Below, one piece after another: positions 988 through 28,871 of a stretch of 64,000 nucleotides of DNA; within the stretch, counting starts at the first letter, position 1, and each line of letters starts with the position of its first letter. Below the pieces are notes generated by a model. That model did not search any database, was not told where the DNA came from, and saw only the letters and a list, made by a program, of their open reading frames with translations. Source of the DNA: an uncultured Dehalococcoidales bacterium (GTDB lineage Bacteria > Chloroflexota > Dehalococcoidia > E44-bin15); the NCBI GenBank assembly GCA_964428725.1, contig CAYRYW010000002.1, positions 27,733 through 91,732 on the forward strand, given 5' to 3'. Both the position numbers and the translations under genes were made by a program.

Positions 988-1412
988 TATACAAGAAAAG
1001 ACCGTTAAAGGTAGATGCAGAGCGTTGGTACAAGGTTGAGTACGACAGGCAGGCGGGGCAGAATACGCAGCCGATCTATCACCTAGACGTTGGGCACTTT
1101 CGGGATCCGGAGGTTGACGGCCAGGAGATGTGCGATCTGTGTAACAATGAAATGTACAAACACGGATGGATAGATAAGTACGACGGTAGTGGGCATGTGG
1201 TTTGTCCGGAGGACTGGGTTGTGACCGAGATAGATGGATCCAAGGTTCCGTACAAGCTTCACGATTTCGAAAAGTCCCATGAGCCCAACCTCGCATATGC
1301 TGTTTCGGCGCTCAGGGACAATTTCGAGAGAGACGCCGTTGTCTTGATAGAGAGAGTTGGCTCAGGAATGAGGTTCACCCCGATGGAGGGCGACGAAGAG
1401 ATCATCGGGTAA
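984..1412 (+). CDS. hypothetical protein
   Basis: 142-aa ORF, ATGA overlap with upstream gene. Confidence 0.5.
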   Translation: MIYKKRPLKVDAERWYKVEYDRQAGQNTQPIYHLDVGHFRDPEVDGQEMCDLCNNEMYKHGWIDKYDGSGHVVCPEDWVVTEIDGSKVPYKLHDFEKSHEPNLAYAVSALRDNFERDAVVLIERVGSGMRFTPMEGDEEIIG

Positions 1413-1419
1413 AGGAGGC

Positions 1420-1869
1420 GTGATGCCTGGTACAGATATTGGTTTCTGGTTGTTCCTGGTCAGCCTGATCCCTAGCTTTCTAATGCTTGTGGTTGTTGGG
1501 GTGATCACGTGGATACAAATCAAGTACAAGAATAGGCTATGGGGGGTGAACTGGGTCATTGCTTTCGGGGTCATGCTGATTGTGTTTTGGGCAACCTTTG
1601 GGTCTTACGGGCCGGGGATCGCGCCGGATCTCCCGCCACCGTCTGAGGAGGGGGTCAATGTGAGGATGGAGAGTGTTCCGCCAGAGGATGTAGGAGGCGC
1701 GGCGGCCAAGGCAGAGAGCAAGGTTCCCCCGGTGCTTAAGCAGGTGCGGGAAACCGCTCAGGGCGGGGCCGGGCCAGAGAAGATTGACGAAGACGAGAAG
1801 TTCAAGCGGACTCTTGAGAATGCACTCAGGATCCAAGACAATAAAAAGCGGAGAAAAGCCAAGAAATAG
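1420..1869 (+). CDS. membrane protein (2 TM helices, Pro/Glu-rich tail)
   Basis: AAGGAGG SD 6 nt upstream of ATG; hydrophobic N-terminal segments. Confidence 0.55.
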   Translation: MMPGTDIGFWLFLVSLIPSFLMLVVVGVITWIQIKYKNRLWGVNWVIAFGVMLIVFWATFGSYGPGIAPDLPPPSEEGVNVRMESVPPEDVGGAAAKAESKVPPVLKQVRETAQGGAGPEKIDEDEKFKRTLENALRIQDNKKRRKAKK

Positions 1870-1908
1870 CCCCCCCTTTCTTTCTTTCCGCAAAAGCACT
1901 TCCCCCTG

Positions 1909-1937
1909 TTGACAAACCACTAACGAGGCTGTAAATT
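1909..1937 (+). promoter_or_regulatory. sigma70-like promoter TTGACA-N17-TAAATT
   Basis: ctgTTGACAaa ... 17 nt ... ctgTAAATT, 45 nt upstream of the 1984 gene; same extended consensus recurs at 3446 and 15272. Confidence 0.45.
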
Positions 1938-1983
1938 AGCAATGAGAGCACAGCCCGAAGTTGACCGCTGAAAGGGGTTTCAG

Positions 1984-2643
1984 ATGAATAGTGAATTTAA
2001 AGACAGGGTAGCTTCTGATGTGGAGGCCATCGACAGTAACAACAGTAACAAGGGGATTATGTATTCACTAAACGATATGACTTACCAGTCTCCTCTTAGC
2101 GATCGATACTCTGTTAAATTCTTCAACAAGATATGGGGCAAGAAGTTGATTCTCTCGGCGACCGAGGTTGCCAGGTTGGACGCCAGTGATTCAGACAAGA
2201 TCTCTATTCTTCTTTCTAAGGTTAAAGACGAGGCGGCGATCCTGTGGGCCATTGAGTGTGTGAAGAACTCGGTCTGTCATGTCAATATGGCAAGGGCTGA
2301 GTTTGGGGTAGAGGTAGATAGCCGCTTTGACAGGGCGCTGTGGGCATTGTCTTCGACGGTAGCGTGCGGGAGCGACCACCCCGGCCTGAGCCGGATACGT
2401 GAAGACTGTGCGCGATTCAAGGCCGAGGAGGGGGACTATGAGTCAAGTTGTATAGCGGGGGCAGTGAACGATCTGTTCATCGCTGTCAGGAGACTCCGCG
2501 AGGATGTTGAGGTCGAGGGTGACGGCGCGGATGATACCATAGTCGAGATGGCAGAGAACGCTGCTGCGCTGGCGATGTTCAGTGACGAGGAAGAGAGGTG
2601 GCAATTGAACCTTCTCGTCAAGATGGCAGGAGGCCAGGTATGA
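1984..2643 (+). CDS. hypothetical protein
   Basis: 219-aa ORF downstream of promoter-like element. Confidence 0.5.
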   Translation: MNSEFKDRVASDVEAIDSNNSNKGIMYSLNDMTYQSPLSDRYSVKFFNKIWGKKLILSATEVARLDASDSDKISILLSKVKDEAAILWAIECVKNSVCHVNMARAEFGVEVDSRFDRALWALSSTVACGSDHPGLSRIREDCARFKAEEGDYESSCIAGAVNDLFIAVRRLREDVEVEGDGADDTIVEMAENAAALAMFSDEEERWQLNLLVKMAGGQV

Positions 2644-2724
2644 TCGACTGCCCAGGGGCAAGGGCGGAGACGACAGAAGAGAATGAAGGCAATGTTGCCG
2701 GTTAACAGCTGAAAGGAAACGAAG

Positions 2725-2952
2725 ATGGAAAGCAATCAAGGAATCAATCAAGTTGAGAAAACCACAACCATTCAGCAGACGAGCAAGAGTATCAAGCTGA
2801 TGTCTCTGGCTGGCACTCTAATGTTCTGGGGAGGGCTCGCGTTCACGATATGGGGAGGGGACGTGATGAAGGTTGTGGGATTTCTTTCGGTGGTGTCTGG
2901 GGTGATCATGGTAATCGGAGCCAAGATCTCCAAGTGGTGGTATCACAGCTAG
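2725..2952 (+). CDS. small membrane protein (2 TM)
   Basis: 75-aa ORF with two hydrophobic helices; GGAAACGAAG upstream. Confidence 0.45.
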   Translation: MESNQGINQVEKTTTIQQTSKSIKLMSLAGTLMFWGGLAFTIWGGDVMKVVGFLSVVSGVIMVIGAKISKWWYHS

Positions 2953-2967
2953 AGGTGGGTGGCTTTC

Positions 2968-2986
2968 TCGCGAACTCAAGTTCGCA
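2968..2986 (+). repeat. conserved palindromic hairpin motif GCGAACTCAAGTTCGC (copy 1/12)
   Basis: 6-bp stem GCGAAC/GTTCGC with 4-nt loop, immediately after stop of 2725..2952. Confidence 0.7.
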
Positions 2987-3007
2987 AAATAAGGAGACGA
3001 AGAGTCA

Positions 3008-3403
3008 ATGTTAAAGGGTACATCTGGTCGAGAAGTCGTGTTTCATATCCAGGATGGCAAGCAGCACTTAATCTCTCCTCCTCCAGGTTGGGAGCGCGGA
3101 GAGGTGAGGAGCGATGGTGCTGCTTGGGTTAACAGGAAGAAGTCGATGAGTGTCATTGCGAGCATCTCTGTTGAATCAGATGGCAAGCACTGGCTTCATG
3201 TGTCTTGTGCACATTTTAGAAGGATGCCGACCTATGAAGAGATGGCGATGGTGAAGAATGTTTTTGTCGGCAGAGACAAGTACGCGATCAGCGTGATGCC
3301 TCCAACCGAAAAGCATGTGAATATTCATAGGTACTGCCTTCACTGGTGGTCCTGCATGGATGGGCATCCGCTTCCGGAGTTTTCCTCTGGCGGAACCATC
3401 TGA
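3008..3403 (+). CDS. hypothetical protein (His/Cys-rich)
   Basis: 131-aa ORF; AAGGAGACGAAG SD-like upstream. Confidence 0.5.
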   Translation: MLKGTSGREVVFHIQDGKQHLISPPPGWERGEVRSDGAAWVNRKKSMSVIASISVESDGKHWLHVSCAHFRRMPTYEEMAMVKNVFVGRDKYAISVMPPTEKHVNIHRYCLHWWSCMDGHPLPEFSSGGTI

Positions 3404-3418
3404 ACTCGCCTCTAGTTT

Positions 3419-3435
3419 CGCGAACTCAAGTTCGC
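3419..3435 (+). repeat. palindromic hairpin motif copy 2/12
   Basis: CGCGAACTCAAGTTCGC 15 nt after stop of 3008..3403, directly abutting a promoter. Confidence 0.7.
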
Positions 3436-3445
3436 AATATTCATG

Positions 3446-3474
3446 TTGACAAAAGAATAACACGGTTGTAATTT
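3446..3474 (+). promoter_or_regulatory. sigma70-like promoter TTGACA-N17-TAATTT
   Basis: tgTTGACAaaag...ggttgTAATTT, 10 nt downstream of hairpin motif. Confidence 0.45.
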
Positions 3475-3523
3475 TCGGGCACAGTGTCTCGGGCGATTGA
3501 TGTCCGATTGAAGGGGTGCGTCG

Positions 3524-3931
3524 ATGACCAGTGAAGAATTGTTGATGTTGAAGGAAAGTCCGGGTTTTGCTTACATAGCTGCTCCGTATTCGCATGAATC
3601 ACAGGCGATCACTTTAGGGCGCGTGAGGATCGTCAATGCCGTGTGTGCTGCATTGATGAAAGAGGGCGTTCATCTGTTCTCTCCCATTAGTCACTGTCAT
3701 CCAATTATGAAGGCGGGCAATCTGCCTGGGGACTTCGGTTTCTGGGGTGGTTACAACAGGAAGATGCTCAGTCATTCGGAGCATTTTGTTGTCTTGGAGC
3801 TAAAGGGTTGGAAGGAATCGGATGGTGTTAACGGCGAATCCAAGACGGCCAAGGGGCTCCATGTTCCACGCATAGGAATAAGCTGGGAAGAGATTTGCGA
3901 CAGGTGGCTGGATCAGGCGCTCGGCATTTAG
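3524..3931 (+). CDS. hypothetical protein (possible nucleoside 2-deoxyribosyltransferase-like/DUF1937-like fold; weak)
   Basis: 135-aa ORF; motifs AYIAAPYSH ... LFSPISH reminiscent of that family; from memory only. Confidence 0.4.
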   Translation: MTSEELLMLKESPGFAYIAAPYSHESQAITLGRVRIVNAVCAALMKEGVHLFSPISHCHPIMKAGNLPGDFGFWGGYNRKMLSHSEHFVVLELKGWKESDGVNGESKTAKGLHVPRIGISWEEICDRWLDQALGI

Positions 3932-3992
3932 GGCTCGGTTGAAAGATGTTGTTGTTTACCTGGGCAGGGTGCCCGGTGTTGAGGAGGAAAGA

Positions 3993-4625
3993 ATGTTCGA
4001 GAATGTAGAAATCGGAGACAAGATCGTAGCGTATCGCGGCAATTACACGGATAAGATCCTTGTTACCGTGACCGACATAACCAACAAGTACATTAATACT
4101 CGCTGTGATCGCGGTGATAGAAGTGAGCGGGACGCTCGCTGGCATAAGTCTGATGGAGTTAGGACAAGATCAAGCAATGTAAAAGATGCCAACAAAGAGA
4201 GGATCACAGACGATGAAGAAGTTGTTGCCGAAGTTGAGAGGGTGTGGGCAGACGAGAATGAGCGACAGAGTCTTTTGAGAGAGAACAGAACAACTGCTGC
4301 AATCATACGGTCACTTTGTATTGACTTGGATTTGCCTGGCAATAGGGTTGCTGGCTGTATGCTCGGCAATGTCATAATTGCCTTAAAAGACCTTGGGAGG
4401 GTGGCAGGCGGAGATGAGCCTGCAAAAAGAAGCAATGGGCGTTATCCGCATCCGAAGTGTCCCTCTTGTGGCAAGCCCATGAATAAAACCATGACCAAGG
4501 GGAAGGCTGTAAAGCCGACCGATCCGTGGGCGTTTTGCCGAAACAAAGGATGCAAGCTGCATGGTAAGGATCAGATACTAAGAGGGAAGCTCAGGAAGCT
4601 CAAAAAGAAGAGCAAATCTTCCTAG
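3993..4625 (+). CDS. hypothetical protein with C-terminal zinc ribbon (CPSCG...C..GC)
   Basis: GAGGAGG SD 6 nt before ATG 3993 (ORF open from 3939). Confidence 0.5.
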   Translation: MFENVEIGDKIVAYRGNYTDKILVTVTDITNKYINTRCDRGDRSERDARWHKSDGVRTRSSNVKDANKERITDDEEVVAEVERVWADENERQSLLRENRTTAAIIRSLCIDLDLPGNRVAGCMLGNVIIALKDLGRVAGGDEPAKRSNGRYPHPKCPSCGKPMNKTMTKGKAVKPTDPWAFCRNKGCKLHGKDQILRGKLRKLKKKSKSS

Positions 4626-4645
4626 TCACGGATTGGAGATGACAG

Positions 4646-5056
4646 ATGAGAGTACCAAAGAGGTTCATACCTGGTTTCCCTAGTTGTCGGTTCAAGTGGT
4701 TAGAGAACAAGCTCCGGGATCTGCACTTGAAGCTGTTCCGGGGGTATTACGATGTTTTCATCCCTCCTTCGATGACAAACGGAGGCAAGGGGGTTTATAT
4801 CTGGAATGGCGGCCCTGAGATGACTTCCGATGAGATAGTCAGTGCTCAGCCTTTCACAGGCATGGGAGTGGATTGTCCATGGGAGTTCGTGTCTAGCGAT
4901 GGCACCGAGGAGACCTCGGACGATCTGTGTGTCCAGATAAGCAAGAAATGGCAGGCGTATTTCCTAGCGATTGGACAGCCAGGGGAAGAAGAGCGGTTGG
5001 CCGAGATAAGAGAGATGTCGGATCGGGCGCTCAAGCTCGTGAGGGATCGAGACTGA
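4646..5056 (+). CDS. hypothetical protein
   Basis: 136-aa ORF, TGATG overlap with next gene. Confidence 0.5.
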   Translation: MRVPKRFIPGFPSCRFKWLENKLRDLHLKLFRGYYDVFIPPSMTNGGKGVYIWNGGPEMTSDEIVSAQPFTGMGVDCPWEFVSSDGTEETSDDLCVQISKKWQAYFLAIGQPGEEERLAEIREMSDRALKLVRDRD

Positions 5057-5364
5057 TGGCCTACCGATCTGTTAGGAAGAAAAGGTTACAATCCATCCTC
5101 GGAAACGGCGGAAGCGATCTAGACAGCAGGGATGCGTCTATAAAGTCGATAAGAAAAGCGTTGCGTAAAGGTCTTATAAAAAGGCCGAGCAGGTGTTCGT
5201 ACTGCAAGCGTATCCCAGGTGTCGACGCTAAGGGAAATCCCAAGATAGAGGCTGTGCATCTGAAGGGGTATGCTCCAGAGCACCGTTTTGATTTTGAATG
5301 GTTGTGTGTAAGTTGCAGGTCCAGGGCCGTGTGGGCAAAGAAGAGGAAAGTTCAAAATGGATAG
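5056..5364 (+). CDS. CxxC...H...EHR...CVSCR zinc-ribbon protein (paralog of 11272..11685)
   Basis: Motif C-x2-C-x3-G-D-x2-GN-KI-x-A-H-x-KGY-x2-EHR-D-x2-W-CVSCR shared with 11272 ORF. Confidence 0.5.
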   Translation: MAYRSVRKKRLQSILGNGGSDLDSRDASIKSIRKALRKGLIKRPSRCSYCKRIPGVDAKGNPKIEAVHLKGYAPEHRFDFEWLCVSCRSRAVWAKKRKVQNG

Positions 5365-5536
5365 AGACATAAAGAGGTTCCTGGTTGCGTTGGCAGAATT
5401 CCTAGACGTCCACGACGCGGAGTTCAAGAGCGAGAGCGGAGGCATAAAGGTGTCGATTGGAAGCAATAACTTTGATACCGATCTCACCTTGTCGGCTGAT
5501 GCTGCTCGGTATCTAGTCGAGACGTATGGATCTTGA
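5357..5536 (+). CDS. small hypothetical protein (59 aa)
   Basis: Unlisted ORF ATG 5357 to TGA 5536 filling gap; overlaps neighbours by 8 and 11 nt. Confidence 0.3.
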   Translation: MDRDIKRFLVALAEFLDVHDAEFKSESGGIKVSIGSNNFDTDLTLSADAARYLVETYGS

Positions 5537-5732
5537 TTTTGTTGTCCTTTTGATCCTGGTGGCAGGGTTCGCTTTGCTGATCGTCAAAGGGGTAGCATCG
5601 GAGCGCAGGTTTCGTAGAGGACATCGAGGGTATCGCTGGGGTAGTCATAAGAAGCCTCCGAAGTGGGCGACCTTGAAACGGAGCGGGCGCAAGAAATGGA
5701 AGAAGGTGCTTAGGATGAAGGGTGGAAGATGA
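5526..5732 (+). CDS. small membrane protein with basic tail
   Basis: 68-aa ORF, one TM helix then R/K-rich tail. Confidence 0.4.
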   Translation: MDLDFVVLLILVAGFALLIVKGVASERRFRRGHRGYRWGSHKKPPKWATLKRSGRKKWKKVLRMKGGR

Positions 5733-6187
5733 TCAAATTTGACATTGCGGTCAGGTGCGATATTTGCCCTGAGGACAGATACCGGGCTTTGACAGTGCGG
5801 CTTCCGCCATGTGGGATCGATGAGGAGCCGATAAGGGATCTTCTTTTTTGGGCTAGCAAGGACGCTTGGTTTGGGCTGTGTTGTGATTGCGAGTCGTTGC
5901 CTACATGTGATTATGCTCGCGCTAACTCTACAATGCGCGACTATGACGGCGAGCAATTGCTTCCTGAAACGGTGAAGATTATCAGAGATCTTGGCAATGC
6001 GTTCAACAGTCGAATGCAGCGTTTGGTGGGCTACTATTCCGATGATACCGAGGTGGCTTCGTTGCATATTCTCAGGGACAGGGCCATCGACAGGGGCGAC
6101 ATTGAGGCTGCCATTGAGTGCAGTCGGAGGATGGGCTTTTTGGAAGGGCTAAGGTCTCAGGTTAAGAGTGTGAAATGCGGAAGATAA
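5729..6187 (+). CDS. hypothetical protein (Cys-containing)
   Basis: 152-aa ORF, ATGA overlap. Confidence 0.5.
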   Translation: MIKFDIAVRCDICPEDRYRALTVRLPPCGIDEEPIRDLLFWASKDAWFGLCCDCESLPTCDYARANSTMRDYDGEQLLPETVKIIRDLGNAFNSRMQRLVGYYSDDTEVASLHILRDRAIDRGDIEAAIECSRRMGFLEGLRSQVKSVKCGR

Positions 6188-6471
6188 AGCGAAAGAAAAA
6201 GAAACCCGTGGAAGAATTGCACAGTGGCAGGCTCAACAGGTGTCTGGACTGTGATGCCATGTGGAACAGTGGGAACAAATACTACAAGGGGTTTCCTGTA
6301 AAGAACGAGACTTCTCCTACTGCTACAGATGAGGGGTTCATTCGGTCTTCCGGGCCTTTCGTTTCTTCTGATACAGAGTGCGTTCATTGCGGCTCTGAAA
6401 ATGTGGTAGAGAACGGGAAGGAGAGGGAGAATGAAGGACGGAATGACAGATGCAGTGTCACAGGATTTTAG
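6175..6471 (+). CDS. hypothetical protein (basic N-terminus, CxxC pairs)
   Basis: 98-aa ORF. Confidence 0.4.
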   Translation: MRKIKRKKKKPVEELHSGRLNRCLDCDAMWNSGNKYYKGFPVKNETSPTATDEGFIRSSGPFVSSDTECVHCGSENVVENGKERENEGRNDRCSVTGF

Positions 6472-6679
6472 CGCTAAGTTCGACGCCTTGATAATCAGGG
6501 CGGCGACGATTCGAAGTAAGAGCACATACCCTTTGCCGAAGAGGGCATCGGAGGCGGTCAGGAGGATCGAGGCGGGCATGGAGAGCAGGGATCCGCTGTC
6601 CGTGTTTACAATGATCAGCGACCTTAGCTATTTCATCGGGTACATGGAGGCTCTTACAGATCCCAAGGGTGGCAAGTGA
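6431..6679 (+). CDS. hypothetical protein
   Basis: 82-aa ORF; GGAGAGGGAG SD-like before ATG. Confidence 0.4.
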   Translation: MKDGMTDAVSQDFSAKFDALIIRAATIRSKSTYPLPKRASEAVRRIEAGMESRDPLSVFTMISDLSYFIGYMEALTDPKGGK

Positions 6680-7041
6680 TGTGCAACTGCTTCAAGTGTA
6701 GGCATCACAGGATACGCGGTGATGGTGCATTGATATGCAAAAAGGATGGCGAGTATCTCGATCCGGAGACCCAAGGCAAGTGTATCGAGGAGTGCAAGTG
6801 CATTGGGTTCGAGGAGGATCTGGAATACTCGAACTGCCTTGAGTGTGACCTTTTGTTCGAAATACAGGGACGCAAGGGAATGTACTTGTGCGAAGGCAAT
6901 ACGCGTCGATTCGGAAACGGGTTGGTGGATGTCTCGGAGCCTGGGGTAAGGGCGCTCATGCGTGAAAGGGGGTGTGGCTGTTTTTCCCAAAAAGAGAAGG
7001 CTTCCCAGTCTTCACGGGAAGAAGCAAAGGAGCCAAGATGA
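6676..7041 (+). CDS. Cys-rich hypothetical protein (11 Cys in first 75 aa)
   Basis: 121-aa ORF, ATGA overlap. Confidence 0.5.
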   Translation: MMCNCFKCRHHRIRGDGALICKKDGEYLDPETQGKCIEECKCIGFEEDLEYSNCLECDLLFEIQGRKGMYLCEGNTRRFGNGLVDVSEPGVRALMRERGCGCFSQKEKASQSSREEAKEPR

Positions 7042-7044
7042 GCG

Positions 7045-7437
7045 ATGGGGACCCGAATGTTTGAGGACACAAAAGTCGGAGATACACTGGTCGTGAGGAC
7101 GAGTGGGTTCAAGGAACACGCTTACGAGACGGTCAAGGTGACGAGGATTACCAAGGCATCTGTTTTTACAGTGCTGAAGGATGGAGCGGCTGAGGTTCGG
7201 TGGTTCAGGAGTAACGGACGCCAGTATGGGGGCACTCATGACCGGTGGCATCCTCGCATGTTGTCGGACAATCCGAGGGATCTCACGAGGGCGCGGCGGT
7301 ACAGGAAGATGGATAGGCTATCTAGGCTGTGCAACTACATCTCTAGTCGTGCTGGCGGGTTGACAGATGAGGACTTAGATGCGGTTTTGCGTCAGCTGAG
7401 TGCTATACGTGATCAGTTTTTCATGGACAAGAAGTAG
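7045..7437 (+). CDS. hypothetical protein (paralogous to 14833..15216)
   Basis: 130-aa ORF; shares KVGD...T.T.....DG.....RW N-terminal pattern with 14833 ORF. Confidence 0.5.
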   Translation: MGTRMFEDTKVGDTLVVRTSGFKEHAYETVKVTRITKASVFTVLKDGAAEVRWFRSNGRQYGGTHDRWHPRMLSDNPRDLTRARRYRKMDRLSRLCNYISSRAGGLTDEDLDAVLRQLSAIRDQFFMDKK

Positions 7438-7440
7438 CAT

Positions 7441-7986
7441 ATGGAAAAGGAGGCGGTAATGGACCAGAAATTTATAAGTTTCATGCTTGAAAGACTAGGC
7501 GGGGAAGCGGCTGCACGGGAGGAGTACGAGAAGGCTCGTCCGGTGGAGATTGCCTTTGAGCTACCCGGCGAAGTGGTCACGATGATCGACAAGCAAGCTA
7601 GCGAGAAGGGTGTAGCCAAAAGCGAGGTCGTGGAGACGGCTGTGAGGGCATACGATGCGAGCGACAGAGCGCCTAAGAAGAAAAGACTGAATCTTGCTCC
7701 GGTTGAGAAGGTTATAAACGACGAGTGCGTTCTCAGGGTTTTGACTATCCAGACGGAGGGCGGCGGATCTGTTTTCATGACAGCTGTTCAGGTGGCTGAT
7801 TGCATTGACCACCTCGACAGGAACACCGCGAGGTCAACGCTGGATAGGCTGGTGCACTTCGGTAAAGTCATGCTTGACAAGAGGGGTCGCACGAACGAGT
7901 ACAAGATCAATCCTGAATACGTGAGGACGATTGATGTTCTGAGGGACGTTGTTGCCGGTGTCCTTAATGGAGAAGGTGAGTCCTGA
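7441..7986 (+). CDS. putative transcriptional regulator, ribbon-helix-helix N-terminus + winged-helix C-terminus
   Basis: GEVVTMIDKQASEKGVAKSEVVETAVRAY resembles CopG/Arc RHH; C-term RSTLDRLVHFGKVMLDKRGRTNEYKI wHTH-like. Confidence 0.45.
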   Translation: MEKEAVMDQKFISFMLERLGGEAAAREEYEKARPVEIAFELPGEVVTMIDKQASEKGVAKSEVVETAVRAYDASDRAPKKKRLNLAPVEKVINDECVLRVLTIQTEGGGSVFMTAVQVADCIDHLDRNTARSTLDRLVHFGKVMLDKRGRTNEYKINPEYVRTIDVLRDVVAGVLNGEGES

Positions 7987-8306
7987 TGGCCGACGACATA
8001 CTCTCCGTCAAGGAGTACCCAGGCAGCATTTATATGCGGCGCGGGAAAGAGGGTCTTGATGGGTGGGGGGTTACTCGTGAGACAGGTAGCGATATAGAGT
8101 ACATCCGAGGGGACATCGTGCGGGCCAGCGCGGCGCGTGCTGCGTTTATGTGGCACCACTTGACCGAGCGGGCAGGGTTGGCGCTTGCGGAGCTGAAAGG
8201 CGACTGTGAGGCCAATTGCAGAAACCCAGGGAAGTGCGACGAAGTGGAGCATTGCTACATTCGAAGCGCGATGGATATTCTTAAGAAGATGACAGGAGAG
8301 GGGTAG
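7986..8306 (+). CDS. hypothetical protein
   Basis: 106-aa ORF, TGATG overlap. Confidence 0.45.
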   Translation: MADDILSVKEYPGSIYMRRGKEGLDGWGVTRETGSDIEYIRGDIVRASAARAAFMWHHLTERAGLALAELKGDCEANCRNPGKCDEVEHCYIRSAMDILKKMTGEG

Positions 8307-8309
8307 CAG

Positions 8310-8561
8310 ATGGTGAGCGAAAAAGGTCTCTCAGAAGAAGAAAAGGCCGACCTGGACAAAGCCATTAGGGCGATGCTCAAGAAGGCTCGTGATCGTGGCG
8401 ATATTACGACGGAGCACTTCGTTAGTGTACCTCGCTCTAAGATCGTGGAGAGGCTCGACTCGTTTTGTGCGCATCATTGTCATGGCCGAGACGAGGGGTG
8501 CGATCCAGAGCGATGCCCGGTGGTTCAGGTTGTAGAGATGATAAAGTGGGACAAGGAATAG
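8310..8561 (+). CDS. hypothetical protein (C-terminal HHCHGRDEGCDPERC metal-binding-like)
   Basis: 83-aa ORF. Confidence 0.45.
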   Translation: MVSEKGLSEEEKADLDKAIRAMLKKARDRGDITTEHFVSVPRSKIVERLDSFCAHHCHGRDEGCDPERCPVVQVVEMIKWDKE

Positions 8562-8563
8562 GA

Positions 8564-8779
8564 ATGAAAATCAGCTCTGAATTAAGGTCTCATCTTGAGA
8601 TAGGGGTTCTCTTTCTGGCTCTGGTCTTGTTGATTGTTTGGCTCTCGACGAGGGGAGCTATCTGGGACACTTGCGAGTCGGAGTGCGCCCCGTACACGGT
8701 GGCGTTGTGCAGTCGAAAACTTGCTGTGTGTAAAACTGTTGACGGTTACTCCGTCAGGGAGAAAAAAGGTAAATTCTAA
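8564..8779 (+). CDS. small membrane-anchored Cys-rich protein
   Basis: ATG 8564 after GGAATAGGA; TM helix then CESECAPYTVALCSRKLAVCKTVDG. Confidence 0.4.
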   Translation: MKISSELRSHLEIGVLFLALVLLIVWLSTRGAIWDTCESECAPYTVALCSRKLAVCKTVDGYSVREKKGKF

Positions 8780-8780
8780 G

Positions 8781-8972
8781 ATGAAACAGACATTTTTAGA
8801 TTACACGTGTACACGAGAAACAGAGAAGGCGATCCTTGTCGAAGACGGTGGCGGGGAAGAGACATGGATCCCCAAATCACAGATCGACGACGATAGCGAG
8901 GTCTACAAAATGGGCACGGAGGGCGACCTGGTTATCTCGGAGTTTTTCGCTGGCAAGCTAGGGTGGTTGTAG
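8781..8972 (+). CDS. small acidic hypothetical protein
   Basis: 63-aa ORF from ATG 8781. Confidence 0.3.
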   Translation: MKQTFLDYTCTRETEKAILVEDGGGEETWIPKSQIDDDSEVYKMGTEGDLVISEFFAGKLGWL

Positions 8973-8994
8973 GGCTGCCAGAAAGAGGATTTAG

Positions 8995-9351
8995 ATGAAT
9001 GTTGAAGATGGGTCTTATGCTGATGTTGCGTCCGTTGAAGACTGTATGGTGACCACCACTGGGAAAGATGAGTACCTCACTGGGTATGAGGACGGGTTGG
9101 CCAAGGGCAAGCGGGACGCTAAGTTTAACAGTCAAGCTCTTCATATTGTGTACCTTACTTGCATTGCGTTCCTCTTTATCCTTTACATTGGATCGAGGTC
9201 TTTCAGGGCAATTGGTGAGCACGATGAACAGGTAATAGAGAACAAGTGCCGAGACATGTGTGAGCCATTTCGCATGGAGTCATGCGGCCCCAAGGCTAGG
9301 ACTGCAACGTGCAGGACTGTCGAGGGCTTTGTAGTGAGGAGTAAGGAATAA
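8995..9351 (+). CDS. membrane protein with C-terminal Cys-rich domain
   Basis: 118-aa ORF; TM helix; C-term CRDMCEPF...CGPKARTATCRTVEG similar to 8564 protein tail. Confidence 0.45.
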   Translation: MNVEDGSYADVASVEDCMVTTTGKDEYLTGYEDGLAKGKRDAKFNSQALHIVYLTCIAFLFILYIGSRSFRAIGEHDEQVIENKCRDMCEPFRMESCGPKARTATCRTVEGFVVRSKE

Positions 9352-9352
9352 A

Positions 9353-9583
9353 ATGAGTGAGTATACCTCCGAGCGGACAGTTTGGATAATCGTGGTGGCT
9401 CTTTTGCTTTTAGCGGCTACCTTGATTGAGTCTGGACAACGTGACGTTGCCCAAGAGGACGAAGGGCATGTTGCGCAGTGCGAGTGTGAGGAGTGCGAGC
9501 CGTGCGGAGCGTACTACGCTGAGCCATGCCCGACATTGGATGAACTTGAAGAAATGATTAATCTACTTAGGAGCCAGGAATGA
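9353..9583 (+). CDS. membrane-anchored Cys-rich protein with CPTLDELEE motif
   Basis: N-terminal TM, CECEECEPC...PCPTLDELEEMI. Confidence 0.45.
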   Translation: MSEYTSERTVWIIVVALLLLAATLIESGQRDVAQEDEGHVAQCECEECEPCGAYYAEPCPTLDELEEMINLLRSQE

Positions 9584-9822
9584 AAGACCGTAACGTGCTT
9601 TTTTGGCAGAGTGTCTTTATCGTCGTCTGTGCCGTTTTCATAGCCTTGCTCCTCCTTGATGGCGCCAGCTTCTCGGAGACACCAGAGGCACAGGAAGTCC
9701 TCGAAATACCTCTGCAAGAATGCCCATGCAGCTGCGAGGAAGTCATCAATTGCCTCGAAGACTGCAATGAGAAGCTAGAGGGAATCAACGAACTTCTTAA
9801 ACGCAGGTCAGGGGGCATGTGA
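9580..9822 (+). CDS. membrane-anchored Cys-rich protein
   Basis: TM then CPCSCEEVINCLEDCNEKLEGINELL; ATGA overlap. Confidence 0.45.
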   Translation: MKDRNVLFWQSVFIVVCAVFIALLLLDGASFSETPEAQEVLEIPLQECPCSCEEVINCLEDCNEKLEGINELLKRRSGGM

Positions 9823-10082
9823 TGCGTGATCGACTAGTTGTTTGGTTTGCGGCAGTGATGTCAGTGGTGTCTGTAATCGGGTTAATCGTTCTGTTCTTGA
9901 CATCACTTTATAACAACAGATTCACCCACGATGAGGCCAAGTCATGTCACTGTTACACCTATGAGGAGGCTGTCGGGATTTTTGATGGAACGATGGAGAG
10001 GCGCAATGATGCCTGCTATGGTACTAACAAATGTCCGTCCTTAACAGAGCTTGTGAATACAAAGGGCATGGAGAACTGGTGA
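9819..10082 (+). CDS. membrane-anchored Cys-rich protein with CPSLTEL motif
   Basis: TM then ...CYGTNKCPSLTELVNT. Confidence 0.45.
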   Translation: MMRDRLVVWFAAVMSVVSVIGLIVLFLTSLYNNRFTHDEAKSCHCYTYEEAVGIFDGTMERRNDACYGTNKCPSLTELVNTKGMENW

Positions 10083-10085
10083 AGC

Positions 10086-10370
10086 ATGAAGTCGAAGATT
10101 GTAGTAATGGTTCTAAGTATAATCGCTGCGGTGACGCTGCTGGCATTGGCGGTAACCAATATTTCCGGATGTGGAAAAAAGAAAGAGGAGTGCCCTCCTT
10201 GCCCGACGCTTGATGAGGTGAGAGAGATACTGGCCGGGACAAGACCTGCCCTTCCAAAGGGGTGTGGCCCCGAGTCGCCGAAGTGCCCTTCTATCGATGA
10301 GATGCTTTCAGAGGAAATGTCGCGCAGCTTCCGGATAATAGAGGACTATCGGCTAGGAGGGGCGAGGTGA
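10086..10370 (+). CDS. putative lipoprotein, Cys-rich, CPTLDEV/CPSIDEM motifs
   Basis: Signal peptide + lipobox ISGC; CPPCPTLDEVREI and KCPSIDEMLSEE. Confidence 0.5.
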   Translation: MKSKIVVMVLSIIAAVTLLALAVTNISGCGKKKEECPPCPTLDEVREILAGTRPALPKGCGPESPKCPSIDEMLSEEMSRSFRIIEDYRLGGAR

Positions 10371-10621
10371 TACTCGAAGGGACCGTCAAGAAGAGCAAAG
10401 AGTACTGGTTAGTAGAAGTGCCTGCGATCGATCTTATGACCCAGGGCAAGACTCGGGGCGAGGCGTTGGACATGATAATCGACGCGGTTGAGACCCTGGT
10501 AGATAAACCTGGTTTCAAGGTCGGGATACACGACAGGCGCAAGAACGTGATAGGTGTCTGGTCGGACGATGCTCAGGCTTTTATGGATCTGATGCTTGAG
10601 AGGGGTAAGAAGAGGGAGTAG
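10367..10621 (+). CDS. HicB-like antitoxin-fold protein (UPF0150), orphan
   Basis: GTG start after AGGAGGGG; EYWLVEVPAIDLMTQGKTRGEALDMIIDAVETLV matches HicB N-domain consensus (Y.A.VP.LPGC.TQG.T.EEAL.N..EAI). Confidence 0.5.
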   Translation: MILEGTVKKSKEYWLVEVPAIDLMTQGKTRGEALDMIIDAVETLVDKPGFKVGIHDRRKNVIGVWSDDAQAFMDLMLERGKKRE

Positions 10622-10626
10622 GCTTT

Positions 10627-10643
10627 GCGAACTTGAGTTCGCG
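10627..10643 (+). repeat. palindromic hairpin motif copy 3/12 (TTGA-loop orientation)
   Basis: GCGAACTTGAGTTCGCG 6 nt after stop of HicB-like gene. Confidence 0.7.
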
Positions 10644-10660
10644 AGAGCACGGGGGCTGAT

Positions 10661-10870
10661 ATGATAGAGTGGCCGAGGGTAGAATTTTTTACAGTTAGAC
10701 CTGTAATAGAATGCGGAGAAGAGAAGCGCAGACAGGCCATGGAGGTCCGGTGCAAAAAATGCCCCCACACCGACGAATGCAAGGGATTCCAGTACGGTGA
10801 CAAACTGGGACCTGCGGAAACTGCTGAGTTTTTGCGTATATACAGAGAAGAGTTGACAAACAAAAGATAG
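10661..10870 (+). CDS. hypothetical small protein (CKKCPHTDEC)
   Basis: 69-aa ORF. Confidence 0.4.
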   Translation: MIEWPRVEFFTVRPVIECGEEKRRQAMEVRCKKCPHTDECKGFQYGDKLGPAETAEFLRIYREELTNKR

Positions 10871-10933
10871 CAATGTAAGGGATCTGAGTGAGATGGCGAG
10901 CGACGATGCTCGTCAGAGGCGAAAAGAGGCAAG

Positions 10934-11275
10934 TTGATGGCTGGTTGTAATGGTTGCGAGCACGGGAAAGAAACGTTCAAGGTCGATGTCGTAGGCACGG
11001 TCGTTTATTGCAAGAAAAAGGGCAGGTCCGTGATTCCTGAGTTGTTTAACAATTGCCCTTCTCGTTCTACCATGGAGGGCAAGAAAGTCGCCAGGAGGGT
11101 GTTTCCAGACGAGAATGTGCCGTGCGATAATCCGTTTGATGAAGTGAAGCGTCTTGAGGGTCTTCTCAGGAATGCGAAGCGTGAGAATACCAAATTGCTG
11201 GACATGATAGGCAAGATGCGGGGCGCGAGCGCCGTAGTGATCAAAGCGGCTGATAAGGTATTGGGGGCGGGGTGA
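10934..11275 (+). CDS. hypothetical protein (Cys-containing)
   Basis: 113-aa ORF, GTGA overlap downstream. Confidence 0.45.
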   Translation: MMAGCNGCEHGKETFKVDVVGTVVYCKKKGRSVIPELFNNCPSRSTMEGKKVARRVFPDENVPCDNPFDEVKRLEGLLRNAKRENTKLLDMIGKMRGASAVVIKAADKVLGAG

Positions 11276-11685
11276 GCGAGCACAACAAGAGCGGGGAAAA
11301 ATGGGGAAGGACAGCTACGAAGGCGGCGGCTGTAAAGACGATCTTCGAGGCGGTCAGAACCGGGCGCATTATTCGTCCGGATACCTGTTCACAGTGCGGT
11401 GAAAAGCCGGGACTGGACGCGGTAGGTAATTCAAAGATTCAGGCAATACACACCAAGGGTTATGAGTTCGAGCACAGGATGGACGTGGTCTGGATGTGCG
11501 TGAGCTGTAGGAATAAATTTGCGTGGATAGCCAGGAGAGAGCGAGAGAACGAAAAGTGCGACATCTGCGGGGAGCCGACAAAAAGGGGAGAAGGCGAGCC
11601 CCGGCTGACACAGGTGAACGGAGAGGAACACGACAGTTATCACTCCATCTGTTTCGATTGCTATTTGCCTGGCGGATATGGCTGA
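11272..11685 (+). CDS. CxxC...AIH.KGY.FEHR...CVSCR zinc-ribbon protein (paralog of 5056..5364) plus second CxxC pair
   Basis: Shared motif with 5056 ORF; additional CDICGEP...CFDCY. Confidence 0.5.
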   Translation: MSEHNKSGEKWGRTATKAAAVKTIFEAVRTGRIIRPDTCSQCGEKPGLDAVGNSKIQAIHTKGYEFEHRMDVVWMCVSCRNKFAWIARRERENEKCDICGEPTKRGEGEPRLTQVNGEEHDSYHSICFDCYLPGGYG

Positions 11686-11696
11686 GGAGAAAAGGG

Positions 11697-12107
11697 ATGT
11701 CGGATTACTTTAAGCAGGCGAACGTTGCGTTTTTGATTTTGGCGGCGTTGTCCCTGGAGAAATCACTGGAAATCACGTGGTTCATGACACTGTTTCCGTA
11801 TTTGCTGATAGTGATATGGTGGTTGCTTGATTATCTGGTCCGGCCATGGTTCGGGCTGTCCAGCGAGGACACCTCTGATGACAGCATGGTCAGGGGGCTA
11901 GTGGACGGGACGTTCAATAATGCGAGGGCAGCCAAGTCTGTGTTACGGTACTATTGTGACAGCGTTTGTTCCCAGGATTACGGAGACTCGAAGCATTGTG
12001 AACGGTGTGAGCACATGAGGGCGCGTGAGTTTTTTGAGGCGGTGGATAGCATAGGTGCAAAGATCCGGTCGCGCAAGAGGCTCGAAGGAGAGGGCCGGAA
12101 TGCCTGA
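11697..12107 (+). CDS. membrane protein (2 TM) with Cys-rich C-terminus
   Basis: GAGGAG SD before ATG 11697; ORF track start 11523 overlaps previous gene and is likely spurious extension. Confidence 0.45.
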   Translation: MSDYFKQANVAFLILAALSLEKSLEITWFMTLFPYLLIVIWWLLDYLVRPWFGLSSEDTSDDSMVRGLVDGTFNNARAAKSVLRYYCDSVCSQDYGDSKHCERCEHMRAREFFEAVDSIGAKIRSRKRLEGEGRNA

Positions 12108-12330
12108 AATCGGAGGATCGGTTGCTGAGGTAATCGTGGAGCAGGCTGCGACCATCAAACACCAGGCTGCGGTTATCGAACATCTCAGGAGTGTCATTCT
12201 GGATCTGTGTCCGAGGGTTACGGTGAAGGATGTAGCCGATCTTGTGGCTATAGAGGCGGATCTAAAGAGGGCGGCTGCCAAGCGCAAGGAAATACGAGAG
12301 AAGCACAACATAGGGGGGTCTGATGGCTAA
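12100..12330 (+). CDS. hypothetical small protein
   Basis: GGAGAGGG SD before ATG 12100. Confidence 0.35.
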   Translation: MPEIGGSVAEVIVEQAATIKHQAAVIEHLRSVILDLCPRVTVKDVADLVAIEADLKRAAAKRKEIREKHNIGGSDG

Positions 12331-12733
12331 CTGTCACGAGTGCGAGCACAACGAGGAATTCAATACGAAGTTTGTGTGGTGCGATGCCAAGAAGTGGCAC
12401 GTCGAGCCTCATAACGAGCAGGACTGCAAAGAGTTCAAGAGCACCCTTGGGCGCAAGTTGTCTCCCAGTGAGGCAATCATGGGTTTTGCGCAGTGGCTCT
12501 CTACCCGGAACTATGAAGTTTCGATGTCGTGCCAGTGTGATCGCCGTACGGTCAAGGAGTTGATCGATGCTTATTGCGAATCGAACAATCTGGAGGATCC
12601 GAAGAGCGGGTGGTGGTCCATCTCCAAAGATCCGGGCAGCGATTACATGTCGGAAAGAGAGATAAGAAAATCGAACGAGCTGGGGATACTGGCTCCATTC
12701 AAGAGGGTGAAAAATGGAATGGGTAAAAGATAA
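12323..12733 (+). CDS. Cys/His-rich hypothetical protein
   Basis: 136-aa ORF: CHECEH...C...C...CQCDRR. Confidence 0.5.
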   Translation: MANCHECEHNEEFNTKFVWCDAKKWHVEPHNEQDCKEFKSTLGRKLSPSEAIMGFAQWLSTRNYEVSMSCQCDRRTVKELIDAYCESNNLEDPKSGWWSISKDPGSDYMSEREIRKSNELGILAPFKRVKNGMGKR

Positions 12734-13115
12734 GTTTAAGAATTTCTCTAGCTTGTCCATATGGATGAAGATCCTGACGGTCCTGGCGGCTATCCTGTTC
12801 CCTGTCCTGTTCGTGCTCTGGGTAGTGGGCAAAGTTGCTGGCTACAAAAGAGGATCCATTGCTGACAGAGAGGGTGGGTCGGACGAGGCTCACGAGAGCG
12901 TCGTTGACGTTGCTCTTGACGAGTTGGTTATTGTGGATCTTGGTATAGAGAAAGGCCAGAAAGAGGCAAAGATAAAGAGGCTGATCGCTGAAGAGAAGGT
13001 AATGGAGGAAGACAATGGCCGGAAGGAATTCCATGACAAAGTTGATGCTGCTGCTGACGCTGGTGGCGTCGATACTATTTTACTCTGGAGAGATGATCGC
13101 AGAGGAAAAGACTAG
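12714..13115 (+). CDS. membrane protein
   Basis: 133-aa ORF with N-terminal TM helix. Confidence 0.45.
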   Translation: MEWVKDKFKNFSSLSIWMKILTVLAAILFPVLFVLWVVGKVAGYKRGSIADREGGSDEAHESVVDVALDELVIVDLGIEKGQKEAKIKRLIAEEKVMEEDNGRKEFHDKVDAAADAGGVDTILLWRDDRRGKD

Positions 13116-13542
13116 CGTCGAGTTCGATGCGTTCAGGCTATTGGACTCGGCACCCAAAGCCAGGCGAGAGCTTCCAAGGGGGAAGAAGATAGTAAGAGAC
13201 GGTGTGGAGTACCAGGCTTTCACGGCGCGAGAGCTTGCCGAGATCGTCAAATTGGAAGACGACTATGTGTGGCTCCACAAGCGGTTCTTCCCGCTAGTTC
13301 ACGCGCACGCGCAGGGGCACTTGGAACTCAAGGCGCTGGATAACAGGAAGGCGCTGTGCGATGGTTCGAAGGAGATCCTAACAAGTGATCGCCTGTACTA
13401 CAAAGAGCGACTGAAAGAGAACAAGGCGTATACGCTAAAGCTCTCGAAGAGCGCCAAGGTAGAAAAGGTTTTACTGATAGGTGCTGTATTGATTGAGGCG
13501 GCGATCATAGGGGCGCTGGGCGTCAAGGTTGTTGTTGACTGA
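13015..13542 (+). CDS. secreted/membrane-anchored protein (signal peptide, C-terminal TM)
   Basis: GGAGG SD 6 nt before ATG; hydrophobic N-term LMLLLTLVASILF and C-term LLIGAVLIEAAIIGALG. Confidence 0.5.
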   Translation: MAGRNSMTKLMLLLTLVASILFYSGEMIAEEKTSVEFDAFRLLDSAPKARRELPRGKKIVRDGVEYQAFTARELAEIVKLEDDYVWLHKRFFPLVHAHAQGHLELKALDNRKALCDGSKEILTSDRLYYKERLKENKAYTLKLSKSAKVEKVLLIGAVLIEAAIIGALGVKVVVD

Positions 13543-13556
13543 GAAGGGCGAGAGAG

Positions 13557-13766
13557 ATGAAAGTTGATATTGAGCCGTTCGTTGCGATTGTCATAGTCGT
13601 CGGGATACTGGGGGCCATGTTCATTGGGCAGTACAACTGGAATGTCTGTGAGAAGTGCGATGTTTGCCATGAGGTAGATGTTGACTCTGATGAGCAAGAC
13701 GGCGGAGTCTTTGTTGAGAATGTTCCGTATCAGGTTGTCCCAATAGAGGTTGGAGCTATGCCATGA
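13557..13766 (+). CDS. small membrane protein
   Basis: 69-aa ORF with TM helix and CEKCDVCHE. Confidence 0.4.
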   Translation: MKVDIEPFVAIVIVVGILGAMFIGQYNWNVCEKCDVCHEVDVDSDEQDGGVFVENVPYQVVPIEVGAMP

Positions 13767-13942
13767 CCACGATTCAAGTAATTACAGTTGCTCTTTGTAT
13801 TTTCTCGCTTGCGACTTCATGCTTGGCGTTTGCTCTTACCTTCAGGAAGGCGAGAGGGTCAGAAATAGCCAGGGATAGGACACTCAGGATCTTAGGTGAG
13901 ATAGAGAGAGAAGCTGAAAAGTGGAATAAGGAGATCAGTTGA
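13763..13942 (+). CDS. small membrane protein (59 aa, unlisted)
   Basis: ATG 13763 overlapping upstream TGA; TM helix; stop overlaps next ATG. Confidence 0.3.
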   Translation: MTTIQVITVALCIFSLATSCLAFALTFRKARGSEIARDRTLRILGEIEREAEKWNKEIS

Positions 13943-14250
13943 TGGATTGTTTTGCTTGCGGATATTCAGACACAGGCGGCGACTTCGTGAGGTGCTGGCA
14001 AGGTGACCGAGAGGGGAAGAGGATCAGCAGAGAAGAGTCGATAAAGGGTTGTAAGTATATAGATTGTACTGGTGAAGAGTGGAGGCACCCGATCCAGATT
14101 GCGCCAGCGGAAAAGGGCGTCAAGGGGACTTTGTATGCGCTCTGCAACGATCATACGATCTGGTCTTATGCAGTGGGGGCCAAGGCGTGGTCGCGAATAA
14201 AGGGGATCCCTCAGCGCAAAAAGGGGGAGGAAGTTGATGGAGCGCGTTAA
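13942..14250 (+). CDS. Cys-rich protein with ALCNDHTIW motif (paralog of 15334..15705 C-terminus)
   Basis: 103-aa ORF; GVKGTLYALCNDHTIWSY vs GDKEVVVALCNDGTTWEL. Confidence 0.45.
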   Translation: MDCFACGYSDTGGDFVRCWQGDREGKRISREESIKGCKYIDCTGEEWRHPIQIAPAEKGVKGTLYALCNDHTIWSYAVGAKAWSRIKGIPQRKKGEEVDGAR

Positions 14251-28870: not shown

Positions 28871-28871
28871 T

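Follow-up and report, generated by a model that had tools for sequence, protein, structure and literature searches.

Two predicted families of small, cysteine-rich membrane proteins and one orphan occupy a variable gene island in an uncultured tailed phage

The 64-kb stretch of DNA analysed here, contig CAYRYW010000002.1 positions 27,733 to 91,732 (hereafter the window), is part of an uncultured tailed phage, a myovirus of about 157 kb with a T4-type head, and it carries between positions 8564 and 10370 six small open reading frames (ORFs), all on the + strand, which we call p1 to p6. A previous sequence-only reading proposed that the six are a paralogous family expanded in tandem around a CP(T/S)LDE motif. 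We found that they appear instead to form two families, A (p1 and p2) and B (p3, p5 and p6), with p4 as an orphan. The analysis shows how the proteins are built, that two families exist, that both occur on phage-like contigs alone, and that genes have been gained and lost at a syntenic locus. Regarding their function, we favor, with a probability of roughly 40%, the possibility that they are tethered mini-binders acting on the extracytoplasmic side of the envelope, with superinfection exclusion or envelope protection as their most likely purpose.

The division into families comes from a comparison of the ectodomains, for which the transmembrane (TM) helices were removed and each pair was aligned locally and contrasted with 2000 composition-preserving shuffles. 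This test gave z-scores of 11.3 for p1-p2, 5.5 for p5-p6, 5.1 for p3-p6 and 2.1 for p3-p5, while the p4 ectodomain showed no significant similarity to any other, and none of the pairs joining p1 or p2 with p3-p6 was significant. The z-scores therefore point to two families and one orphan, and the single six-member family was rejected on the basis of the p4 and A-versus-B comparisons. Thus, p1 and p2 would be paralogues of each other, as would p3, p5 and p6, but the proposed tandem family does not extend across the two groups or to p4. The fate of the shared motifs is similar. The CP(T/S)LDE motif is found in p3, p5 and, twice, in p6, but not in p1, p2 or p4. Its strict version, CP[ST][LI][DT]E[LVM], has four copies within 760 bp and none elsewhere in the six frames of the 64 kb, compared with a mean of 0.005 in mononucleotide shuffles, for a pattern that was written with the data already in view. 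The “CRxxEGFVVRSKE / CKTVDGYSVREKK” tails do exist and constitute the strongest common feature, but they are confined to p1 and p2. The alignments thus reveal motifs beyond composition within p1 and p2 and within p3, p5 and p6, and none spanning all six.

The six ORFs exist as they had been described and are real genes, although they are not strictly consecutive, as p1 and p2 are interrupted by pX (8781..8972, + strand), which encodes a soluble protein of 63 amino acids (aa) with no TM helix that matches phrog_8389 (E=1.7e-8) and belongs to neither family. This gene is present in contig L010 and absent between the p1 and p2 homologues of contigs L005 and L009. The gene caller used for the source contig calls all six, with p5 starting at ATG 9822 and not at GTG 9819, and the codon-usage log-likelihood, obtained with a model trained on large structural genes, is above zero in the annotated frame and below zero in the other two for every one of them. 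The genes are tightly packed, with overlaps of ATGA between p3 and p4, GTGATG between p4 and p5, and GTGA between p6 and the following gene, while the others abut, and no competing ORFs cover them on this strongly strand-skewed genome. The description of the proteins as having an N-terminal TM helix or lipoprotein signal followed by a cysteine-rich ectodomain was accurate: each contains one 19-aa segment near its N-terminus with a mean Kyte-Doolittle hydropathy of 2.2-3.0 (located in p2 at residues 48-66, after an N-terminal region of 47 residues), p6 has a lipobox, and there are 4-6 cysteines (Cys) per protein. These Cys residues are kept in relatives at 35-79% identity, and the p6 lipobox, I-S-G-C29, is kept as L-V-G-C29 in P0002, a homologue that is 62% identical. 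Proteins identical to p1-p6 recur in JGI, ENA, Logan and NCBI data, on no fewer than 5-6 contigs. The idea that some or all of the ORFs, especially p4 and p5, are chance reading frames finds an argument in p4 and p5, for which a search of 5.8 billion proteins gave homologues in no other phage and which are both absent from L005, but the coding potential, the packing on a single coding strand, the strong TM helix in each protein and the repeated recovery of identical proteins make it extremely unlikely.

Family A consists in the window of a short and a long form. The short form, p1 (8564..8779, + strand, 71 aa), has a TM helix at about residues 11-29, a four-Cys knob at residues 37-65 and a conserved C-terminal K-x-[GS]-K-F, and its homologues are P0016, P0019, P0020, L005 5235-5465 and L009 3-176. 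The long form, p2 (8995..9351, + strand, 118 aa), presents a conserved cytoplasmic helix, GKDEYLxGYxDGxAKxxRD, followed by a TM helix at about residues 48-66 and a four-Cys knob at residues 85-115 (window 9247-9339), and its homologues on three short contigs are 56-79% identical. The consensus of 17 aligned sequences is C-x3-C-x-P-[YF]-x5-C-...-A-x-C-[KR]-T-x-x-G-[YF]-x-x-[RK], in which the four Cys, P, A and G are invariant; the p2-like proteins conserve the cytoplasmic motif (K/R)DEY[LF]xGY[DE]DG, and the p1-like proteins end in K-x-[GS]-K-F. One of each form, or two copies, is found in the window, L005, L009, L012 and L013/L023. The p2 sequence is conserved on both sides of the membrane. 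In the AlphaFold2 (AF2) model of p2, built from 5 sequences, a continuous helix runs from residue 21 to 88 through the membrane and is followed by three short strands at residues 93-116, the knob being the most confident part, with a predicted local distance difference test score (pLDDT) of about 86.

The distribution of family A is narrow. An exhaustive profile search of 1.84 billion representative proteins returned 11 matches at E<=1e-3, one of which is p2 itself and another a spurious repeat protein; the family amounts to around 10 clusters, all on uncultured phage-like contigs. In all the carriers that we examined, the contig is phage-like, with densely packed genes that lie almost without exception on the same strand. 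A scan of 185,579 species-representative cellular genomes found no family A member, IMG/VR yielded nothing when p2, p6 and the family A profile were used as queries, and neither did a tblastn search with p2 against 50,697 cultured phages. Of two metagenome scans, the first gave nothing and the second three loci. A Foldseek search with the p2 model against PDB and BFVD gave no match at E<0.2, and the SH3-like matches to the knob span 25 residues at E~1, which is not meaningful. Taken together, these searches suggest that family A is an undescribed, phage-only family with a predicted four-Cys beta knob of around 30 residues.

Family B is defined by a CxC or CxxC followed by CP[ST][LI][DT]E, which starts a predicted helix. 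Its first member, p3 (9353..9583, + strand, 76 aa), has a TM helix at residues 10-28, an acidic linker, the sequence CECEECEPC and CPTLDEL at window 9527-9547, and it has a homologue in L005 (P0007). The second, p5 (9819..10082, + strand, 87 aa from GTG 9819 or 86 aa from ATG 9822), has a TM helix at residues 6-24, a CHC and CPSLTEL at window 10032-10052. The third, p6 (10086..10370, + strand, 94 aa), is a predicted lipoprotein with the lipobox ISGC29, CPPC-PTLDEV at 10200-10220 and CPSIDEM at 10284-10304, and its stop codon falls within the overlap with the gene that follows. Between p3 and p5 lies the orphan p4 (9580..9822, + strand, 80 aa), which has a TM helix at residues 6-24 and the sequence CPCSCEEVINCLEDC, and which has only its architecture in common with its neighbors. 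Hidden Markov models (HMMs) of the motif built with one member left out made p3 and p6 each other's best non-self match, with E=2e-4 and 8e-3 in a database of 1,535 ORFs. At the DNA level, p3 and p6 have in common an 18-nt repeat (EEC-x-PC), and the DNA around CCxTGyCCGAC is conserved in p3, p6 and their L005 homologues. When a profile of p3, p4, p5, p6 and two L005 homologues was searched against the 5.8 billion proteins, only those six sequences were returned.

The AF2 model of p6 (mean pLDDT 71) offers a possible explanation for the conservation of the motif, as its helices at residues 42-50 and 70-89 begin exactly at the two C-P-[TS]-[LI]-D-E motifs. We thus read the motif as a Cys, then a Pro, then what may be an S/T-x-x-E helix cap, an interpretation that draws on general knowledge of helix caps. 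A CxxC is present in several of these proteins, as C36-P-P-C39 ahead of the modeled helix 42-50 in p6, and as CEPC in p3, CPKC in the L019 protein and CRSC in the L023 protein. We also considered a thioredoxin-like CxxC oxidoreductase and rejected it, as the ectodomains have 45-65 aa and are predicted to be all-helical, and there is no Pfam or fold match, while a thioredoxin fold takes around 80-100 aa in a beta-alpha-beta ... beta-beta-alpha arrangement. In PDB, Foldseek found 0 structures similar to the p6 model at E<=10, and tblastn with p6 against the cultured phages gave one chance-level match (E=0.4).

Distant carriers of family A also encode small TM proteins with the pattern C-x(1,2)-C-[PLI]-T-[ILR]-E-E-V. 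L012 contains one at 3896-4141 (CQCPTIEEVIEAL), L019 one at 722-931 (CPKCLTIEEVLTEI) and L023 one at 3146-3415 (CRSCITREEVMEIF, to be compared with CPPCPTLDEVREIL in p6). The shuffle z-scores are 4.3 for p5-L012, 3.8 for p6-L019, and 2.6 for both p6-L023 and p6-L012. In the case of L023, the link is strengthened by position, as the gene is followed directly, and with an overlap, by the HicB-like gene that also comes after p6 in both the window and L005. It is thus probable, though not proven, that these proteins are related to family B, which, like family A, appears to be an undescribed family found only in phages.

The statement that these proteins are not recognizable as a known family has held up, as searches of Pfam, PHROGs, PADLOC, and PDB by sequence and by fold were all negative. 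Pfam, PHROGs and PADLOC searches of p1-p6 and their neighbors gave only sub-threshold noise for p1-p6, which have no match among PADLOC or anti-defence families, none at E<=1 to PF14373 (Imm_superinfect), and none in Pfam or PHROG to a spanin, holin, antiholin or RI family. PDB sequence profiles of both families gave nothing below E=0.2. The match of p3 to PF12669 (FeoB-associated Cys-rich membrane protein) reaches E=0.011 and 16.4 bits, below the gathering threshold of 27, which places p3 outside that family; the two are alike in their short length, their TM helix at the N-terminus and their cluster of Cys at the C-terminus.

The genes that accompany family A vary from phage to phage at what is otherwise a syntenic locus. 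Its conserved right-hand boundary in the window, L005, L009 and L023 is a HicB-like gene (10367..10621, + strand, 84 aa), with an antitoxin fold and matches to phrog_5243 and phrog_497; no HicA-like partner was noticed beside it. Between family A and this gene, there are no genes in L009, three in L005 (encoding a 111-aa soluble protein, the p3 homologue and the p6 homologue, with no p4 or p5), four in the window (p3, p4, p5 and p6) and seven in L023 (six single-TM proteins and one soluble protein). In L010, p2 is followed by an unrelated 62-aa tail-anchored protein. Two independent assemblies end 29 nt upstream of p6, and these breaks are consistent with strain variation. The amino-acid divergence of p1, p2, p3 and p6 from their L005 counterparts is 35-62%, while that of the flanking genes is 33-74% (the flanking syntenic genes being 58-74% identical to those of L005), so faster evolution than that of the flanking genes is not supported. 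Since the values for these proteins fall within the flanking-gene range, the variability of the island lies in its gene content and not demonstrably in its rate of change.

With this pattern of gain and loss, the island reads best as a hyperplastic accessory region. In T4-like phages, variable genes are known to cluster in hyperplastic regions (HPRs; PMC4122927, PMC2839356), and the island resembles these in being a block of small variable genes between conserved ones, with insertion, deletion and replacement between close relatives. It differs in that its genes overlap or abut, that there are no promoter/stem-loop (PeSL) cassettes above chance, and that TnpB elements (OrfB_IS605 / Cas12f1-like) are found nearby instead, at L005 3265-4314, upstream of the island, and at L008 3-233, where the element truncates the 5′ end of the p3 homologue.

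Several other genes were observed in these islands or elsewhere on the contigs that carry them. A third family of single-TM proteins of 138-159 aa, with a Cys-rich linker and a “GWEGQLW...LGLAVRK...W(G)xC” domain, occurs in the same islands in relatives (L012 4579-5046; L013 937-1353 and 2007-2486; L016 7761-8195; L022 1044-1460) and is absent from the window. L011, a related contig of 105 kb, carries at 7244-7462 an Acb2/Tad1-hairpin gene (of the anti-CBASS/anti-Thoeris sponge family) two genes downstream of a family A gene. At the 5′ end of L023, a 4-kb contig, a tryptophan-synthase-beta-like sequence (2-746) lies directly upstream of the membrane-protein module and is either a chimeric assembly or a fragment of a phage-borne metabolic gene. 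An N-terminal-TM protein of 68-75 aa with a very basic Arg/Lys/Trp-rich tail has been conserved in both the window (5526-5732) and the distant related contig L019 (498-725). Finally, the window contains a second cluster of membrane proteins at 13015-13942, which comprises three proteins. The first, of 175 aa, begins with a signal or TM helix, ends with a TM helix and lacks a lipobox; the second, of 69 aa, and the third, of 59 aa, are TM proteins, the former having an acidic tail that contains Cys and the latter a basic C-terminus. The three have no PHROG or Pfam match, and a lysis-related role for the cluster is possible.

How, then, could the six proteins be arranged in the cell? The p6 domain is predicted to be exported by its lipoprotein signal, and the domains of p3 and p5 would also be extracytoplasmic because they have this domain in common with p6. 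For the p2-type proteins, an N-in/C-out topology is predicted because a K/R cluster lies just N-terminal to the TM helix in p2 and its homologues. Two structural disulfides would fit the 4-5 ectodomain Cys of each protein, which are invariant in family A, and are most likely in its knob, although these residues might bind metal instead. The topology, the disulfides, the timing of expression, the targets and the purpose in the following scheme are all inferred. In the arrangement that we propose, p1-p5 would be tethered by a single N-terminal signal-anchor helix and p6 by its lipid, with their short, acidic, Cys-rich C-terminal domains facing the periplasm or extracytoplasmic space. The conserved core would be family A, usually one long and one short form with a knob locked by two disulfides, and the family-B-type proteins would form a variable set around it, the two modules being unrelated. 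The proteins would be made during infection, inserted N-in/C-out, and oxidized by the host disulfide machinery, after which they could act as tethered mini-binders of host envelope components. Most likely, this would serve to protect the infected cell, through superinfection exclusion or receptor masking, from competing phages or from agents that attack the envelope.

We favor this purpose because of the analogy with the Llp, Cor, Ltp, Imm and Sp proteins and because the genes are accessory and exchangeable. The lipoprotein Llp of T5 blocks FhuA (PMC9586334), and the lipoprotein Ltp of the Streptococcus thermophilus phage TP-J34 gives superinfection exclusion (PMC3952083). Together with Cor of phi80 and N15, these are small extracytoplasmic phage proteins that bind an envelope component and block further infection (PMC9586334, PMC3952083, bioRxiv 10.64898/2026.03.26.714494). 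The likeness to these proteins concerns p6 only, a 94-aa lipoprotein with a conserved lipobox. There is no similarity in sequence or fold (PHROG, Pfam, PDB sequence, and Foldseek of the p6 model), the relatives of p6 are mostly TM-anchored, and here we find a cluster of at least six genes and not a single one. Another parallel is offered by Imm and Sp of T4, two small proteins of the inner membrane whose effect is exerted at the envelope soon after infection begins. As with these, p1-p6 are small phage-encoded membrane proteins, and a Pfam Imm_superinfect gene exists elsewhere on the related contigs L016 and L017. However, p1-p6 do not match PF14373 or another family, and their Cys knob and helix-start motifs have no counterpart in Imm or Sp. 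Overall, the earlier suggestion of superinfection exclusion or envelope remodeling seems a reasonable one in view of the architecture and of the gene gain and loss.

Several observations weigh against this interpretation. The negative family and fold searches leave the targets and the exclusion function with no support from homology, and promoter- or terminator-like sites around the genes do not exceed the shuffle expectation in a scan restricted to sigma-70-type consensus sequences. Among 50,697 cultured phage records, none has a major capsid protein more than 32% identical to the one encoded here, a similarity too low to point to a host, and p6 would sit in the inner or the outer membrane depending on whether that host is monoderm or diderm. 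Cys-richness alone is not distinctive for p1-p6, as small, soluble, Cys-rich proteins are common in this phage, and nothing indicates that the six evolve unusually fast. The AF2 models reach no more than moderate confidence (mean pLDDT 69 for p2 and 71 for p6, with 5-6 sequences each). The links of family B to the distant loci are weak (p=0.002-0.02 before correction for 28 comparisons, and borderline after it), and the leave-one-out motif HMMs, which cover 22 residues, did not significantly recover p5 (E=0.3-0.9) or the distant family-B-like proteins.

Other functions have to be weighed on the same anatomy. One, closely related to the reading that we favor, is host takeover or anti-defence, in which the proteins would bind and neutralize membrane proteins of the host, such as abortive-infection effectors, envelope stress sensors, or the division and transport machinery. 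The anatomy fits this as well as it fits the binders that we favor, and the island lies among small accessory genes, with the HicB-like antitoxin-fold gene overlapping the end of p6 and, in L011, the Acb2/Tad1-type gene near family A; moreover, the conservation of p2 on both sides of the membrane would suit action on, or signaling through, a membrane complex. No anti-defence family matches p1-p6, however, and, since unrelated small genes crowd these regions, the association with neighbors carries little weight. We consider this function unlikely, while noting that the present data do not separate it from exclusion. The possibility that p5 (or p3) and p6 form a “separated” two-component spanin, in which a type-II protein of the inner membrane and a lipoprotein of the outer membrane would bridge the periplasm and fuse the membranes at lysis, also deserves attention. 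T4 PseT.3 and PseT.2 (117 and 83 aa) are such spanins, located away from the holin and endolysin genes, and their outer-membrane member (o-spanin) has a C-terminal helix (PMC6139136). The order of a small type-II gene and a small lipoprotein gene is the same here, with a 3-nt gap between p5 and p6 in the window and a 4-nt overlap between the p3 and p6 homologues in L005. Each of p3, p4 and p5 has, as an inner-membrane i-spanin would, one N-terminal hydrophobic helix (its topology being predicted from charge and from homology to p6), and the p6 lipobox lies beside a candidate i-spanin gene. Both partners have ectodomain Cys, and the number in p6, exactly 4, equals the highest reported for an o-spanin; their periplasmic parts add up to about 113-125 residues, within the published 62-300; and the p6 model has a C-terminal helix, with 8 Pro in its 66 mature residues. 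Furthermore, no spanin, holin or endolysin PHROG was found among the other window proteins scanned, but the window represents 64 kb of about 157 kb, and the true lysis genes may lie elsewhere. Against a spanin, p1-p6 have no homology to PseT.3/PseT.2 and match no described spanin family (PHROG, Pfam), the candidate partners appear to be homologous to each other in the shuffle test (p5-p6 and p3-p6), and the pair is not conserved, the partner being p5 in the window and p3 in L005, while in L009 the locus lacks p3-p6 altogether. A TM helix and not a lipobox anchors both the L023 protein in the equivalent position and the L012 and L019 proteins related in sequence, so tethering to the outer membrane is not a conserved property of the family; the total of 8-9 periplasmic Cys is at or beyond the published maximum of 8; and the host may not be diderm. 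A spanin thus seems quite improbable. Synteny of the T4 kind, with spanin genes beside pseT, was also examined and rejected, as 0/10 of the larger upstream ORFs (505-7983) match a polynucleotide-kinase PHROG, though one such match exists in the window, in an ORF that was not located.

It is less likely still that the proteins regulate the timing of lysis as holin/antiholin-like or RI-like bitopic proteins, whose periplasmic domains would sense or set the moment of lysis. They are predicted to be small bitopic proteins with periplasmic domains, and family A has long and short forms in at least five phages, a pairing that resembles that of holins and antiholins; the cluster at 13015-13942 could also be taken in this sense. 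On the other hand, there is no holin, antiholin or RI family match, no endolysin was detected nearby, a single TM helix with a tiny folded knob is unlike the known holin classes, and a variable gene content is hard to square with an essential timing function. Finally, the topology could be the inverse of the one proposed, with the Cys-rich tails forming cytoplasmic zinc- or metal-binding knuckles in place of disulfide-bonded ectodomains. Many soluble, Cys-rich, CxxC-type small proteins are found in this phage, p3 has its sub-threshold match to PF12669, and the charges flanking the helices of p3 and p5, as read from their sequences, are ambiguous. Nevertheless, the p6 lipobox is conserved and its domain, predicted to be exported, is homologous to those of p3 and p5, the K/R cluster of the p2 family lies on the N-terminal side of the TM helix, and strongly acidic tails fit a location outside the cytoplasm, which leaves an inverted topology highly implausible.

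The phage itself is uncultured. The window corresponds approximately to positions 6354-70353 of a 157,265-bp metagenomic contig (JGI 3300029258, Ga0309772_1000083), nearly all of its genes are on the + strand with a strong positive GC skew, and its marker genes include a T4 gp20-type portal, a gp23-type major capsid protein, a prohead protease and tail sheath proteins. Comparison of the DNA of window 7000-12000 with the 50,697 cultured phage records gave no match, and the phage is only distantly T4-like. The island belongs to the non-structural part of the genome, within a long run of small genes annotated with no function upstream of the structural module; scans of the window for tRNAs and Rfam families found nothing. 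Many small soluble proteins in which Cys accounts for at least 5% of the residues, with spacing of the CxxC type, are encoded at window 5729-7041 (for instance, one with 12 Cys in 121 aa at 6676-7041), 10661-10870, 12323-12733, 13939-14250, 20347-20985 and 41840-42220, and such Cys-rich, probably zinc-binding proteins are a general trait of this phage. The portal gene (28845-31718) is split by an intein with an HNH endonuclease (Pfam Portal_T4 and Intein_splicing; PHROG HNH matches). Just upstream of it, an ORF of 2179 aa with 78 Cys (22331-28870) contains at least one intein with a LAGLIDADG domain (residues ~161-525), whose host protein was not identified by Pfam. Matches to tail-sheath PHROGs (phrog_15433, phrog_23) fall in two distinct genes, at 42217-43803 and 56981-59842.

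Small phage membrane proteins represent a large and mostly uncharacterized part of the viral dark matter, and the cases that have been studied (Imm, Sp, Llp, Cor, Ltp, spanins and antiholins) control entry to or exit from the cell. The island described here is an ordinary kind of phage accessory region, composed of small membrane ORFans, and no new mechanism is demonstrated by it. What is new are two compact and searchable phage-only families, one with a predicted four-Cys knob and the other with a CxxC/CP-T-x-x-E helix start, together with their syntenic variable island. A more speculative possibility, which we regard as a long shot, is that the island encodes an expandable repertoire of disulfide-stapled mini-binders, in which a two-part family A core and rapidly exchanged CxxC-helix proteins would form a periplasmic complex against changing envelope targets of the host or of competitors; if so, it would be a modular specificity cassette for envelope warfare and not a set of unrelated ORFans. 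If the proteins do exclude other phages or bind the envelope, their knob and helix modules would be tiny, stable scaffolds that bind bacterial envelope proteins, and the presence of the island would signal conflict among phages, or between phage and host, in sediment communities.

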